Origin: a virus
Length of the DNA: 64,000 nt
Virus record (IMG/VR): IMGVR_UViG_3300009320_000011
Location: 1-64,000 of that record
Strand: one strand, 5' to 3'
The notes below the pieces were generated by a model that was given only the letters and a program-made list of their open reading frames with translations, was not told the origin of the DNA and did no database searches. Positions 3,841 to 53,115 of this stretch are shown here, piece by piece (the first letter of the stretch is position 1; each line of letters begins with the position of its first letter). The position numbers and the translations under genes were made by a program.

Positions 3841-4119
3841 ATGAAAAAAAATGTAGAGAACAAAACCCATAGTTTCAAAAAATCAAAAATTAACGGCACT
3901 AAAGTCATCGTTAAAGACAACTCAGACCAGGCAATCGATTCAGCAATATATAGTTTTAAGAAACTGGTAAAAGACAGCGGTAAATTAAATGAGTTACGAG
4001 ATAGACAAGAATATTCAAAACCATCTAAAAATCGTAGAGAAACAATACAATATGCTGTCAGAAGACAAAAAAGACTGACAGAATATGAAAAATATATCGA
4101 TTCTCTGTCATATAATTAA
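3841..4119 (+). CDS. rpsU: Phage-encoded ribosomal protein bS21
   Basis: VIVKDNSDQAIDSAIYSFKKLVKDSGKLNELRDRQEYSKPSKNRR matches the bS21 pattern (V.V...IE.ALRRFKK...G.L.E.R.R..YEKPS..RR); lies between protease and scaffold. Confidence 0.85.
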   Translation: MKKNVENKTHSFKKSKINGTKVIVKDNSDQAIDSAIYSFKKLVKDSGKLNELRDRQEYSKPSKNRRETIQYAVRRQKRLTEYEKYIDSLSYN

Positions 4120-4272
4120 CAGATTTTCTATTTTTCTGATATGTATATATGATTGGTAATTCAATCAAGAAATACACTGTCCTACCTTTATATAGTGTTT
4201 ATAATTAATATTCCTATTATAGTTTTTCAATAACTATATTTCCTAAACTAAAAATAATTTTGGGAGAAAAAA

Positions 4273-5256
4273 ATGCCAAAGAAAAAACAATTATTAGACG
4301 AGGTTATTCTCGATGCTAAACTTGTCAGGGAAACAGCTCTTGAACAAGCCAGACTAGCACTTGAAGAAGCTTTTAAACCAAAGATTCAGTCGATGTTGTC
4401 TAAAAAATTACAACAAGAACAAGAAGACGAGGAAATCGAAGACGAAGAACTTCCAGTCGAAGATGAATTTCCAGTTGAAGATGAAATTGAAGATGAAGAA
4501 GAAGTAACTGAAGAAGAAGAAATCGAAGATGAAGAAGAAATTCCAGTTGAAGATGAAGAAGAAGAAACTGAAGATGAAATCGAAGATGAAGAAGAAGTAA
4601 CTGAAGAAGAAACAGAAATTGAAGATGAAATCGAAGATGAAGAAGAAATTCCAGTTGAAGATGAAGAAGACTTAGATTTAGAAGCCGTTATCAAAGAGCT
4701 TGAAGATGAATTAGATGAAGAAGAAGTTCCTCCAGTTGAAGATGAAGAAGAAGAAGTAACTGAAGAAGAAATTCCAATCGAGGATGAAGAAGAAGATGAA
4801 GAAATCGACATCGAAGAAATCATTAAAGCTTTGAAAGAAGAAGATGATGAAGAAGCAGAAGAAATGACTGAAGAAGATGCAGAAGAGGGAGTTGAAGAAT
4901 TAAAAACAGAACTCGAAGAAGCGTATAATGTAATTAATGAATTGAAAAATGAATTAAATGAAATCAATATGTTAAATGCTAAACTGTTGTACTCAAACAG
5001 ACTATTTAAGAAACACAATATGACTCAAAATCAGAAGATGAAAGTTATTGAAACTTTTGATAGAACGAATAGTATTCGTGAAATTAAACTTGTTTACGCA
5101 ACACTAGCAGAAACATTAAACAACACAACTAAAACAAGAAAAAACTTGAAAGAAAGTTTTGCATCTGATACCGTAAAATCAACGAAACCAACAAAAATCA
5201 TCAAAGATGAAGATTCGTTAGCATCAAGGTTCAGAGAATTAGCAAATCTTAAATAA
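4273..5256 (+). CDS. Prohead scaffolding/core protein, long Glu/Asp-rich middle
   Basis: Directly upstream of the capsid gene; acidic repeats (EDEEEVTEEE) and coiled-coil C-terminus. Confidence 0.8.
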   Translation: MPKKKQLLDEVILDAKLVRETALEQARLALEEAFKPKIQSMLSKKLQQEQEDEEIEDEELPVEDEFPVEDEIEDEEEVTEEEEIEDEEEIPVEDEEEETEDEIEDEEEVTEEETEIEDEIEDEEEIPVEDEEDLDLEAVIKELEDELDEEEVPPVEDEEEEVTEEEIPIEDEEEDEEIDIEEIIKALKEEDDEEAEEMTEEDAEEGVEELKTELEEAYNVINELKNELNEINMLNAKLLYSNRLFKKHNMTQNQKMKVIETFDRTNSIREIKLVYATLAETLNNTTKTRKNLKESFASDTVKSTKPTKIIKDEDSLASRFRELANLK

Positions 5257-5268
5257 TAGGAGAAATAA

Positions 5269-6918
5269 ATGAGTTTACAGAAAATTATGGAATCAACTAA
5301 AGTTTACGACAAGAAACTTCGTGACGAAACTGAAGTGTTGGTTTCAAAATGGAAAAGAACTGGTCTCATGGATGGTCTCGAGAAAACGAAATACGAAAAA
5401 TACTTCGTAGCTCAATTACTCGAAAATCAAGCCAAGCAATTAGTCGTTGAATCATCTAGGACTGGAACAGCATCAAACTCAGAGGAATGGTCAGGAGTAG
5501 CTCTACCGTTGGTACGTAGAATTTTTAGCGAAATAGCAGCTAAAGATTTTGTTAGCGTTCAACCAATGAGCCTACCATCAGGACTAGTATTCTGGGTAGA
5601 CTTCAAATACGGAACTGGGCAACCAGGATTCACTACAGGATCTGGTAAAGATTCTGAAGCTGACTCTGTATTTGGTATAACAGGAACCATCGGATCTGAC
5701 GCAAGTCAAGGTCTTTATGGAGCCGGCAGATTTGGTTATTCAATCAATGAAGCTGATACAGCAAATCTTGTAACAGGATCAACACCATCATCAACAGAAG
5801 TTGCTACTGCATCTATTGCTGCAGCTGACTATAATTATGATACGTCATTCTCACAGTCATACGCAGGACAATTTGATAGTAGCGCAACTGCTGGTATGTT
5901 TAAGATAACAATGGCGTCGTCTTCAATGACTAATCCAGACTTTGAAGGTATTCGTGCATATAAAATTCGTGGACCTGGTATTTCAACATACTTCCCACAA
6001 TTTACAGTAGCCAATTCAAACAATTCACAGATATCGTTTATTATATCTGGGTCTCAATCATCGTTTAATGGTGGTGGTATTGCTGTAACATACCATAAAC
6101 AACCAACTGATATTACTCGTGGTGACTTTGAAGCTACATCTGATACGGACATCAATATTCCGGAAATCAACGTAGAAATGAAATCTGAACCTATCGTAGC
6201 TAAAACGAGAAAACTAAAAGCTATCTGGACTCCTGAATTCGCACAAGACTTAAATGCATATCACTCAATTGACGCTGAAGCTGAACTAACATCAATGTTA
6301 TCTGAGTACATCTCAATGGAAATTGATCTTGAGATTTTGGATATGTTGATCAAAAATGCAGCAACAACTGAACGTTGGTCAGCACAAATCGGTAGATATT
6401 ATGATAACGCAGCAAGTGCATTCGTTGATTATGCAACGGCTCAAGCACAAGCAGCAGCATTTAACCAAGGAACATGGTTCCAGACTCTGGGAACAAAAAT
6501 CCAGAAGGTATCTAATAAAATCCATCAAAAAACAATGCGTGGCGGAGCGAACTTCTTAGTTTGTTCACCTGAAGTAGCAACTGTTCTGGAATCAATCCCA
6601 GGATATTCAGTTGACACTGACGGCGATAAACCACAATTCGCGATGGGCGTACAGAAAATTGGTCAAATCAATAACAGGTTCCAAGTTTATAAAAATCCAT
6701 ATATGTTAGAAAATACAATTCTTCTAGGATATCGTGGATCACAATTCTTGGAAACAGGAGCTGTTTTTGCACCATATATTCCGTTGATTTTAACTCCATT
6801 AGTATATGATCCTAACAACTTTACTCCAAGACGTGGAGTTATGACACGTTATTCGAAGAAGTTGATTAGACCGGAATTCTACGGAAAGATACATGTAACT
6901 GATCTACCAAACGTGTAA
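5269..6918 (+). CDS. gp23: Major capsid protein (T4 gp23-like)
   Basis: LPLVRR, VSVQPMSLPSGLVF, AKTRKLKAIWTPEFAQDLNAYHSIDAEAEL, APYIPL, GVMTRY. Confidence 0.96.
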   Translation: MSLQKIMESTKVYDKKLRDETEVLVSKWKRTGLMDGLEKTKYEKYFVAQLLENQAKQLVVESSRTGTASNSEEWSGVALPLVRRIFSEIAAKDFVSVQPMSLPSGLVFWVDFKYGTGQPGFTTGSGKDSEADSVFGITGTIGSDASQGLYGAGRFGYSINEADTANLVTGSTPSSTEVATASIAAADYNYDTSFSQSYAGQFDSSATAGMFKITMASSSMTNPDFEGIRAYKIRGPGISTYFPQFTVANSNNSQISFIISGSQSSFNGGGIAVTYHKQPTDITRGDFEATSDTDINIPEINVEMKSEPIVAKTRKLKAIWTPEFAQDLNAYHSIDAEAELTSMLSEYISMEIDLEILDMLIKNAATTERWSAQIGRYYDNAASAFVDYATAQAQAAAFNQGTWFQTLGTKIQKVSNKIHQKTMRGGANFLVCSPEVATVLESIPGYSVDTDGDKPQFAMGVQKIGQINNRFQVYKNPYMLENTILLGYRGSQFLETGAVFAPYIPLILTPLVYDPNNFTPRRGVMTRYSKKLIRPEFYGKIHVTDLPNV

Positions 6919-49620: not shown

Positions 49621-52362
49621 ATGTACCAAAATCTTTTTTTCGATCGAGAAAGTTATGTAATGCACGTCTTCGACGATGCTAAAGGATACTATAAATCCAA
49701 ATACAATTCGTATGCCTATGTATTAGATGCTGGTGGTATGTATAATACACTGGATGGCAAAACTGTTAAGAGGATACCGGGATATAAGGTTAAAGAATAT
49801 GATAAAAGTTTATTATATGAATCAGATGTAAAACCAGAAATAAGGTTTTTGATCGACAAGTACGGACTATCAGATGAACCATCCAAAAATCATATTACAC
49901 TATTTTTTGATATCGAAGTCGAATCAGCTGATGGTTTCCCAGACCAAGTATTAGCTGAGCAAGAGGTAACTGCAATATCATGTTGGATAAAAGAGATAGA
50001 TTCATCTATACTACTTCTTCTTGATAAAAGCGACATTATAAAAGATGTAAATAAGAAAAATGTTAAAATTATATCATTCAAAGATGAAGTATCTTTATTG
50101 GATGAATTTATTAATATATTACACAAAATCAAACCAACGATACTAACTGGTTGGAATATAAATAACTTTGATATACCATATCTATATAATAGGTATACCA
50201 ATATATTTGGTGAAGATGTAGCAAAACAATTAAGTCCAATTAACATAGTTAAAGAGGATCATTATAACGACGGTGAATATAAAATAGCTGGTGTAAATTG
50301 TTTAGACTATTTATTATTATATAAGAAATTCGAATCAAACCAGAAACAAGCATATTCACTTGATTTTATTGGTGAATTGGAGATAGGACTTGGCAAGGTA
50401 AAATATGACAAATCATTGGATGATCTATACAATACAGACATCGAAGGATTTATTGAGTATTGTTTTCGTGATGTTGAAATTGTAAAACAACTTGATGAAA
50501 AATTAAACCATATTGAACTGACTAAGATGGTATGTCATAAAGGACACGTACCATACGAAGATATATTTATGTCGTCTAGATATTTAGAAGGAGCGATATT
50601 AACGTATTTGAAAAATAATGAAATAGTATCACCCAATAAAAAACCAGAAATCAAACTTGTATTATCTCGAGATCATAACTTAGATGAATCAAAATTATAT
50701 GTTAGAAGCATACCAAAAGAAACACCATTAAGTGGTATGTTAGGCATAAAGAAATCAAAATCCTCATTTGTATATGTCGACTATAAAGAATATAAGGGGA
50801 ACTATTTCATATTAAAGGAACCACTAAAAGAATATATAGATAAAACTTATAAGGTATCGTTCGAGTTTACAGGAGCTAGAGTTAAACCACCAAAACCAGG
50901 TAGGTTTAAGTGGATGTTTGATTTAGACTTAAAATCAATGTATCCGTTTTCAATTATTACATTGAATATATCTCCAGAAACAAAAAAAGGCAAAGTATTT
51001 GAATTTGACCCATATGAGTTTTATAATAATAAAGACGCAAATATAAGAGTCATATTTGACTCAGATGAATTATTGATTACGTATTCTGAATTAAGGAAAT
51101 TGTTGATAAAATATAATTGTTCTATATCATCCAATGGAATAATTTATTCACTTGAAAAACGTGGTTTGATACCAAATATACTTGAATTGTGGTCTTTTGA
51201 GCGCGATGATGTAAAGGAAAAACGCGATGAACATAAAGAAGGATCAAAGAAATATCAGTATTTCGATAGACTCCAGGAAAGGCAAAAGGTTTTGCTTAAC
51301 TCAATTTATGGGTGTCTTGGTCTGCAATCATTTCGTTGGTATGATTTAGATAATGCGGAAGCAACAACGTCGAGTGGAAGGACATTAATAACATATTCAG
51401 AAAAAGTTGCAAATTTATTTTATAATAAAGAGTTAAATATCGATGTAAGTGCATCAAAAAATAATCAAGTAGATTATTGTGCTTACATCGATACGTAGAT
51501 GGATTCATTATTCTTTTCAACTTTACCAATTATTGAAAAAAGATATCCAACTGAGGATTATGAAAATGATTCTTTTATGATTAATAAAACACTTGAAATC
51601 ACTAGAGAAATACAAAACTTTATTAATGATTCGTATAAAAATTATTCAAATGGATTTCATTGTGTTAAAAATCATAGCTACAAAATTAAGCAAGAACTTG
51701 TAGCAAAATCCGGATTTTGGTTAGATGTAAAGAAACGATATGCATTACTAATAGTTGATAAAGAGGGCGTGAGACTTGAAAAACCAAAATTAGATGTAAA
51801 GGGATTGGATACTGTACGTAGTGATTTTCCAAATAGTATGCGTGAGTTTATGAAGGAAACATTAATGCATATATTAGAGTTTAAGTCAAAAGAGTTTTTG
51901 GATAAACATATTGAGCAATTCAAAGAAAAAATAAATTCAATTGAAGTAAAAGATATCGCTCGACCATCTTCAGTAAATGGTATTGGTAAGTATTCTGGAA
52001 GAAAAACACCAGGAGGATTGACTGAAATTAAAAAAGGAGCTCAATCACATATAAAAGGATGTATATATTATAATGATTTGATTAATATATTTGATCAATC
52101 AAAAGATTACGAGCACATCAGGAATAAAGATAAAATTAAGAGTGTTTACTTGAAAGACAATCCATATCAATTTGAATCTTTATCTTATCGGGGATATGAC
52201 GATCCGCCAGAAATTATTGAATTTATTGAAAAATATATAGACCGAAATAAAATCTTTGAATTATTGCTGGTAAATAAATTAAATTCATTCTATAAAGCTT
52301 TGGGCTGGGGCGAGATTAATGCGTTAATAAATAAAAACATAAATAAATTTTTTGATTTTTAG
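49621..52362 (+). CDS. gp43: Family B DNA polymerase (gp43-like), interrupted in motif C by TAG at 51496-51498
   Basis: FDIE, GWNINNFDIPY, DLKSMYP, KVLLNSIYG, YIDT*MDS, KKRY, KGLDTVRSD. Confidence 0.92.
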
Positions 52363-53115
52363 ATGATATACAATTATAAAGACGGAGACATAGACTTTAG
52401 TGATATAACTCTTAATTTAAGAGCTGATCAAAAGAGAAAAGTAAGAACTAAAAATACTGATATACTATACAAATATCAGAATAAGTATTATACGAAATAC
52501 AAATCGAATTACCGACGGTTGCTTTGGAATACTAAGACCGCGATGAGTAATAATTATATTTTGGCATGCAAATTTATAGATTTCAGCACGGTCGATTCAT
52601 TTATCGATATTGGATGTGGAACTGGAGAGTTTATAGATTATGTTATATCAAATCATGAAATAGACAATATTGTTGGCGTCGATGCCGTACCAAATTTTGT
52701 TGATTATGCTAAAAAAGAAAATAAAAATCATAATGTAGAATTTATAAATGACAATCTATTTAATATACCAAATAACGATGGCATTAAAACATATGATCTC
52801 TGCACTATGATTGGTGTATTGCAGGTATTAGATCTAAATTCAATGGAGCATATTTTTGATGTAATCAAAGAAGTAGTAAATAGTGGCGGTCAAATTTGGC
52901 TAACATCAGTTAATTATTATAAGTATATAAAACATCGTTTTAGTACAGACAATCGACGATTGGCTGGAACTTGGAAACATAAAGTTGAAGAAGTGGTATA
53001 TTATATGAAAGATGATTTTCATGATATTAAATTCGGTTCTTTCGATAAAGATGGAGAAATAGCTGAAAATAAATACGACGGCAGATATATTTTCGTTTAT
53101 GGAGTTAAAAACTAA
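52363..53115 (+). CDS. Class I SAM-dependent methyltransferase
   Basis: FIDIGCGTG, VGVD, GGQIWL. Confidence 0.8.
   Translation: MIYNYKDGDIDFSDITLNLRADQKRKVRTKNTDILYKYQNKYYTKYKSNYRRLLWNTKTAMSNNYILACKFIDFSTVDSFIDIGCGTGEFIDYVISNHEIDNIVGVDAVPNFVDYAKKENKNHNVEFINDNLFNIPNNDGIKTYDLCTMIGVLQVLDLNSMEHIFDVIKEVVNSGGQIWLTSVNYYKYIKHRFSTDNRRLAGTWKHKVEEVVYYMKDDFHDIKFGSFDKDGEIAENKYDGRYIFVYGVKN

Follow-up and report, generated by a model that had tools for sequence, protein, structure and literature searches.

A hairpin-associated stop codon in motif C of a marine T4-like phage DNA polymerase gene: a candidate programmed six-nucleotide stop-hop

The DNA analyzed here (hereinafter referred to as the window) comprises 64,000 nucleotides (nt), positions 1 to 64,000 of the 75-kb IMG/VR virus record IMGVR_UViG_3300009320_000011, which is about 38% complete by estimate. 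It carries a gp43-type family B DNA polymerase gene (PolB) whose catalytic motif C is interrupted by an in-frame stop codon directly behind an RNA hairpin. The sequence has a G+C content of 31% and is present in marine metagenomes. A UvsX/RecA-like gene, a 5'-3' exonuclease gene, and a DnaB-like helicase gene adjoin one another as T4-like replication genes, and the source is an uncultured marine T4-like phage. The polymerase locus contains the following features.

49621..51495, + strand: upstream frame of PolB (gp43-type), carrying the exonuclease domain, motifs A and B, and motif C as far as YIDT
51436..51471, + strand: insertion stretch of 8 residues (24 nt) relative to fused sisters, from residue counts between NKEL and DYC; supplies the 5' arm of the hairpin; borders ambiguous
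51438..51493, + strand: RNA hairpin; its 3' arm consists of the codons for C-A-Y-I-D and ends on the first base of the proposed take-off codon
51493..51495, + strand: proposed take-off codon ACG, for the Thr of DTDS
51496..51498, + strand: in-frame stop codon TAG, which would occupy the A site at take-off
51499..51501, + strand: ATG, proposed landing codon and also a possible restart codon
51502..52362, + strand: resume frame, carrying motif C from DS onward, the remaining palm, and the thumb, from the reading frame, Pfam, and relatives

The open reading frame (ORF) 49621-51498 encodes 625 amino acids (aa), ends in DYCAYIDT, and is closed by TAG at 51496-51498. It is directly adjoined by ORF 51499-52362 (287 aa), which starts with MDSLFF (ATG GAT TCA). 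In the Pfam search, PF03104 (2.5e-27) and PF00136 (5.1e-19) were matched on these reading frames; the upstream ORF took the exonuclease domain together with the opening portion of the polymerase domain, whose remainder fell on the downstream ORF. Motif A (DLDLKSMYPFS) and motif B (KVLLNSIYG) identified the product as a gp43-type family B polymerase, and motif C was intact only with 51496-51501 skipped: removal of these six bases restored YIDTDS. The nearest named relatives were polymerases of T4-like cyanophages and pelagiphages, at a best identity of 37%. An intein at the junction was rejected, since only six bases lie between YIDT and DS; the upstream chain ends with YIDT and the downstream chain starts with MDS, with no extra residues between them.

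An original prediction, made from the letters of the window, had pointed out the break ACG TAG ATG GAT TCA in motif C and the arms of the hairpin, including an inner ATAATC/GATTAT stem, and both were recovered by the ORF analysis and the fold. The outer stem pairs 51438-51453 with 51478-51493 (16 base pairs, bp, two of them G.U) and the inner stem pairs 51461-51466 with 51472-51477 (6 bp), giving 22 bp in total. The minimum free energy (MFE) was -23.3 kcal/mol, against -8.2 +/- 2.2 kcal/mol in 200 shuffled sequences, none of which folded as well (z = -6.84). No match was obtained from Rfam at E <= 1 over positions 41000-52600.

The interruption was not confined to a single assembled sequence. 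The exact N-terminal product was found on three contigs and the exact C-terminal product on four contigs of the protein collection, and a Logan contig from a marine run, which may derive from the source sample, spanned 51439-51653 with zero differences. Further, the split relative P0003 (82% identity) stops at the identical residue (DYCIYIDT); P0122, its partner, is encoded on the same 3932-bp ENA contig, and this pair was compared as proteins. The closest fused relatives, P0002 (87% identity, 890 aa) and P0004 (81%, 904 aa), have an intact DTDS. The resume frame of the window shared 81% identity with P0122 and with the C-terminal portions of P0002 and P0004. The spacing from NKEL to DYC was 12 residues in the window and 15 in split P0003, versus 4 in fused P0002 and P0004; both split forms thus contain 8-11 extra residues just before DYC, and both fused forms are without them. 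This distribution agrees with the proposal in the original prediction that the 5' stem arm (IDVSASK) is an insertion linked to the stop. An error of sequencing or assembly, which the prediction had named as the finding that would overturn it, is unlikely, because identical products occur on several contigs and the same break occurs in P0003.

Further interrupted polymerase genes were found by DNA-pattern scans of IMG/VR and of a metagenome collection, in which a stop codon or TGG after the Thr was built into the patterns. In six PolB genes the reading frame was broken directly behind the Thr codon of DTDS: L076 (= L090), L077, L079, L083, L089, and L291. The gap between the Thr codon and the resumed sequence was 8 bases in L076 and 5 bases in the other five, compared with 6 in the window, and TAG, TAA, and TGA were all represented at the position after Thr. 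In all seven loci the downstream frame opens exactly at Asp-Ser and runs for 280-292 codons. The codon immediately before the resumed sequence was a Thr codon in four of the seven (ACC after ACC, ACT after ACT, and ACT after ACG twice), and in the remaining three it shared two of three bases with the take-off codon (GCT after ACT; ATG after ACG in L077 and in the window). The interrupted frame of the six relatives starts only 22-31 codons upstream of the break, because the polymerase is also split in these loci, and begins with a leader of the form MKIKxI(R/K), which the window does not have. In L076, L079, L089, and L291, no ATG, GTG, or TTG was present between the upstream stop of the resume frame itself and the Asp codon; therefore, a separate chain bearing the catalytic Asp would have no canonical start there. 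A scan of genome contigs with the DYCxYIDT pattern returned 61 chance matches and no polymerase.

A hairpin was found at every one of these breaks. All seven interrupted PolB alleles possess a stem of 13-22 bp whose 3' arm terminates within 1-3 bases of position 1 of the take-off codon, with MFE values of -15.4 to -23.3 kcal/mol. As controls, the same 63-nt window was folded in 110 uninterrupted genes encoding DYCxYIDT (MFE -1.4 to -11.8 kcal/mol) and in six genes that are split but ungapped (-0.8 to -5.5 kcal/mol). The hairpin belongs to the gap and is absent from both control groups. The 3' arm is constrained coding sequence, and the 5' arm follows its synonymous differences between loci, with double compensatory changes at stem positions -1, -4, -7, and -10. 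Each stem contains 0-4 G.U pairs, through which the sense strand is more stable than the antisense strand in seven of eight cassettes (hairpin, take-off codon, stop, and gap), and thus a role at the mRNA level is indicated.

A second cassette of the window genome lies in the 5'-3' exonuclease gene (FEN/RNase H-like; 41437-42462) and was found without the stop-or-TGG pattern.

41437..41526, + strand: exonuclease cassette, with leader, hairpin, take-off codon, stop codon, and landing codon
41469-41481 with 41509-41521, + strand: hairpin of 13 bp that spans the proposed take-off codon (fold z = -5.32)
41518-41520, 41521-41523, and 41524-41526, + strand: proposed take-off codon CTT, stop codon TAA, and proposed landing codon CTC, respectively

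A 28-codon leader ends with KVLIVDGL, the last residue encoded by CTT, and is followed by TAA, CTC, and the sequence NLYIR. The break is in frame, comprises 6 nt, and falls inside the VDG-LN motif. The N-terminal domain of 5'-3' exonucleases (PF02739) was matched by the downstream ORF only from position 9 of the profile onward, and the first start codon after TAA is ATG 41563, 13 codons on and beyond the VDG motif. Among 80 IMG/VR relatives, 78 were unbroken and read DGLNTFIR; the other two, L259 and L278 (about 44% identical to the window gene), showed the same in-frame break as CTT TAG CTT, with a different hairpin built on their own codons. The break is probably a second stop-hop in this genome, as judged from these sequences. 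A scan of the whole 75-kb record for the hairpin-stop-gap architecture recovered the PolB and exonuclease sites and one further match, at record position 74405, which was a false positive inside an ordinary 228-codon ORF.

The reading that we favor, and consider somewhat more probable than all others together, is a programmed 6-nt stop-hop from ACG to AUG that would yield a single polymerase chain with YIDTDS. The ribosome would translate up to the Thr codon at 51493-51495, with the stop codon TAG in the A site. At this point the 5' arm of the hairpin would already be outside the ribosome, and the last 12-16 bases of the 3' arm would still be in the mRNA channel. Completion of the stem would draw the mRNA backwards through the ribosome, which amounts to a forward hop, and would strip the first take-off base from the anticodon. 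The peptidyl-tRNA(Thr) would then leave ACG and re-pair six bases further on at AUG, through A-U, a middle U.G, and G-C pairs. Decoding would restart at GAT TCA, so that nine bases encode one Thr, and one chain of about 911 aa would result, with the predicted junction tryptic peptide ...VDYCAYIDTDSLFFSTLPIIEK. Some termination and restart at the ATG may accompany the hop. A single mechanism of this kind, with a hop over 5-8 bases and re-pairing on an identical or similar codon, would account for all loci and would restore the family consensus each time. The hop is favored because the six homologous PolB cassettes are out of frame and four of them, like the exonuclease cassette, offer no start codon. 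The hop of a Thr tRNA from ACG to AUG had been one of two outcomes considered in the original prediction; the comparative evidence sides with it, and the two-chain alternative considered there is retained below as a rival.

Several points weigh against the hop. The window is the ambiguous case among the cassettes: its gap keeps the frame, and its stop is followed directly by ATG, the landing codon in two of the seven PolB cassettes, which is above chance; restart may be selected there. Re-pairing of the ACG-decoding tRNA on AUG depends on a G.U pair in the middle. Because the hairpin reaches right up to the take-off codon, its lower half would be unfolded at take-off, and its role as a driver is a model. 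The stop after Thr was demanded by the search patterns, and its constancy across the PolB cassettes is thus not independent evidence. For P0003/P0122 the break was placed from the protein ends. The call for P0122 opens at the counterpart of Met27, a hint, short of a demonstration, that its stop lacks a following start codon. With the record about 38% complete, a second polymerase gene may exist elsewhere in the genome. At every locus, the hop is proposed from sequence comparison.

The strongest competitor is a two-chain enzyme, in which translation terminates at TAG, the same ribosome restarts at the adjacent ATG, and the 625-aa chain ending in YIDT and the 287-aa chain starting with MDS assemble non-covalently. 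The ATG lies directly 3' of the stop, and TAGATG occurs again at 52360-52365, as the original prediction had noted, where it joins the next two genes. Of the 74 same-strand junctions, 36 overlap or are 1-15 nt apart, mostly without a Shine-Dalgarno (SD) motif, and two more, the PolB junction and that of the next gene, are exactly adjacent; since such close junctions without an SD motif are common in this phage, restart would be mechanistically ordinary. No SD-like motif was found within 20 nt upstream of ATG 51499, which is weak evidence, as only 29 of 76 genes of the phage have one. A split gp43 (43A/43B) of Aeromonas phages is active, as summarized in PMC2988022, and many relatives of the window polymerase are split 12-20 residues upstream of DTDS. 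This explanation is opposed by the lack of a start codon in four homologous cassettes and in the exonuclease cassette of this genome. In L077, which has the same ACG-to-ATG pair as the window behind a 28-codon leader, restart would release the first catalytic Asp on a peptide of 28 residues. Further, the gap-specific, co-varying hairpin would have no role, and the break would separate the two Asp residues of the invariant DTDS turn; every other natural split that we found lies outside this turn. We regard two chains as less probable than the hop, yet as a serious rival and more credible than the explanations that follow.

Readthrough of the stop, with or without a suppressor tRNA, would produce one chain with YIDT-X-M-DS and is compatible with the in-frame gaps of the window PolB and exonuclease genes. 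It is very unlikely: two residues would be added inside DTDS, versus none in 110 relatives; the homologous cassettes with gaps of 5 and 8 bases would not be rescued; and the position is taken by TAG, TAA, or TGA, depending on the cassette. Within the record, genes end normally in all three stop codons, TAG itself ends the polymerase at 52360, and long ORFs are intact under translation table 11, which argues against stop-codon reassignment. No tRNA gene was found in a search of all 75 kb, leaving no phage tRNA to tie to readthrough or to the hop. For the cassettes with a 5-base gap, -1 or +2 frameshifting was also considered and is less likely, as it would bring one or two variable residues into DTDS and no slippery heptamer is present.

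Two other explanations are weaker still. A recent pseudogene or an assembly or sequencing artefact might be suspected of a metagenomic contig with low read depth in both runs that hold it, but is highly improbable given the recurrence described above, the approximately 81-87% conservation of both halves with fused relatives, and the long open resume frames in seven lineages. Hairpin-guided removal or editing of the six (or 5-8) bases at the RNA level, after which an ordinary ribosome would read an intact message, could make use of the conserved sense-strand hairpin beside the gap, but it is equally improbable, as no bacterial or phage mechanism is generally known for 5-8 bases and no Rfam match supports one. 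The single RNA sequencing run examined yielded no contig over this region.

The distribution of the interrupted alleles was examined on a quick maximum-likelihood tree of PolB C-terminal parts. They were scattered: the window was sister to fused P0002, and L089 to uninterrupted L153. At least three state changes were forced by branches with support of >= 95% in the Shimodaira-Hasegawa-like approximate likelihood ratio test (SH-aLRT). The cassette has therefore been repeatedly gained or lost, as an association with a homing element would predict. Relative to L153, L089 has an insertion exactly before DYC and, 24 nt beyond it, the 5-base gap; the inserted block consists of a C-terminal tail, a remnant of an endonuclease gene, and a leader. 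In L076 and L079, an intact, free-standing, endonuclease-like ORF of 286-298 aa lies between the polymerase halves. It was assigned to phrog_22677, whose function is unannotated, gave only a sub-threshold restriction-endonuclease-like match in Pfam, and matched nothing among PDB sequences. It shares repeat motifs (E = 2e-4) with an endonuclease-like ORF of the window at 46993-48117. From its position and the shared repeat motif, we regard it as a putative homing endonuclease.

The endonuclease-like ORFs were located at 8754-9611 in L076 (oriented), 403-1296 in L079, upstream of 1338 in L291, and 2392-2589 in L089. The ORF ends in YEN and overlaps the leader ATG; L077 and L083 have lost the ORF and keep the overlap, and L089 retains a 66-codon remnant. 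These states look like decay stages of one element. In the window, no ORF was present between the polymerase halves and no upstream split was found. This form, with a small insertion and a gap but neither endonuclease nor split, may be a reduced cassette in which the bypass would be retained. By analogy with T4 mobA/gene 60, the extra bases would spoil the target of a homing endonuclease that adjoins the cassette in relatives, so that the gap would protect against cutting while the protein stays normal.

A polymerase split just before DYC was observed in many relatives (L076, L077, L079, L083, and L089; P0005, P0020, P0029, P0051, and P0069). The N-terminal fragments of split relatives carry a beta-rich tail of about 35-45 residues (..ELEDG....V.V.R.G......L.E.D.I), which resembles the start of a Hint domain without the catalytic Cys, and the C-terminal fragments carry the MKIKxI leader. 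Judging from these sequences, the tail and leader may be a degenerate split intein that only holds two chains together. Split inteins were found at DTD|S of PolB in the relatives P0133 and P0136, one residue past the break of the window. On the L076 contig, another gene upstream of the polymerase (oriented, 4040-6867) is fractured by a split intein and an intervening ORF, giving at least two such elements there. The ribonucleotide reductase of the window (43868-49255) is encoded in three pieces (43868-45070, 45858-46931, and 48104-49255) joined by two split inteins, and each of the two intervals between pieces holds one free-standing endonuclease-like ORF (45121-45888 and 46993-48117). Elements of this kind are abundant in the genome. 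On the other side of the polymerase, the gene joined to its 3' end through the TAGATG junction encodes an S-adenosylmethionine-dependent methyltransferase (52363-53115).

Efficient translational bypassing has, to our knowledge, been proven only for T4 gene 60 and the byps elements of yeast mitochondria. Gene 60 contains a 50-nt bypass within a mobA homing-endonuclease cassette (Bonocora 2011, as cited in bioRxiv 10.1101/2022.08.31.505936; PMC5009743). The PolB cassettes resemble it in lying in a T4-like replication gene, in having a stop codon right after the take-off codon, in a proposed landing codon, matched or nearly matched, followed directly by the resume codon, and in a conserved mRNA structure that includes the take-off codon. 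In L076, L079, and L291, and as a remnant in L089, the cassette also lies just 3' of an endonuclease-like ORF, in the same order of tail, endonuclease, leader, and bypass (bioRxiv 10.1101/2022.08.31.505936). The geometry differs, since the gap is 5-8 nt instead of 50 nt and the hairpin stands wholly 5' of the stop, whereas the stem-loop of gene 60 at the A site and take-off codon contains the stop. Further, the genes concerned here encode a polymerase and an exonuclease and are interrupted in catalytic motifs, whereas gene 60 encodes a topoisomerase; homology of the cassettes to gene 60 was neither seen nor tested. The window also differs in having no endonuclease or gene split, an upstream frame of 625 codons, and a landing ATG that could be a start codon. 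In this reduced form it is comparable to the 'hit and run' topoisomerase genes of Manning and Atkins (bioRxiv 10.1101/2022.08.31.505936), except that the bypass would be kept here. Pairing of the exiting mRNA has been proposed as a forward driver in gene 60 (bioRxiv 10.1101/2024.12.09.627546).

Stop-hops in which nine bases encode one residue, such as CUU UAG CUA, have been described in Escherichia coli constructs (Weiss et al. 1987, as cited in bioRxiv 10.1101/2022.08.31.505936 and PMC5009743). Like the hops proposed here, they are in frame and pass 6 nt over a stop between similar codons, and the exonuclease pairs CTT TAA CTC and, in L259 and L278, CTT TAG CTT are nearly of the same type; unlike them, they were unprogrammed and of low efficiency, whereas the present sites are conserved, lie in essential motifs, and have a dedicated hairpin. 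A recoding review of 2016 knew of no natural in-frame stop-hop and stated that shorter counterparts of bypassing had long been presumed (PMC5009743). The mitochondrial byps of Magnusiomyces capitatus are similar in being many short bypassed inserts in essential genes, often with two of three bases matching between take-off and landing codons, but are 27-55 nt long, mitochondrial, seemingly independent of context, and have an unassigned codon in the A site (PMC5009743).

As for split polymerases, the 43A and 43B chains of Aeromonas phages 25 and 44RR co-purify and are active (Petrov and Karam, as cited in PMC2988022 and PMC2677866). These, too, are T4-like PolB proteins encoded as two frames divided in the palm region, in one case with a homing-endonuclease gene between them. 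Their frames are separated by an untranslated spacer or the endonuclease gene and have their own starts, whereas those of the window meet directly within DTDS, behind a hairpin, with no SD motif. The fractured-gene arrangement of split inteins plus free-standing endonucleases described by Dassa et al. (2009, PMC2677866) occurs twice in the reductase of the window, but the PolB junction is without intein sequence. In a full-text literature search, gene 60 homologues were reported only in topoisomerase genes, and no short hops were reported in phage polymerase or exonuclease genes.

A broader proposal, which in our judgment could equally well prove right or wrong, is that a family of micro-bypass cassettes exists in marine T4-like phages, each with a 5' hairpin ending in the take-off codon, a stop codon, and a 5-8-base gap, which would direct efficient hops in catalytic motifs of replication enzymes and spread or persist by destroying the targets of homing endonucleases; two would be present in this genome. 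If so, the two in-frame cassettes would be the first natural programmed in-frame stop-hops, and the window would hold the first cassette without an endonuclease or a gene split, making the hairpin and gap a self-sufficient recoding module. At about 60 nt, the recoding signal would be compact, with the hop driven by a hairpin upstream. Nature would offer it with gap lengths of 5, 6, and 8 bases, with each of three stop codons, and with several take-off/landing pairs. The signal could be placed directly in E. coli reporters, where it would probe whether ribosomes are pushed forward by pairing of the exiting mRNA. Annotation is affected as well, since such essential polymerases and exonucleases come out of gene callers as split or truncated. 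In addition, the idea drawn from mobA and gene 60, that a bypass shields a gene against a homing endonuclease, would extend to other genes and other phage groups.

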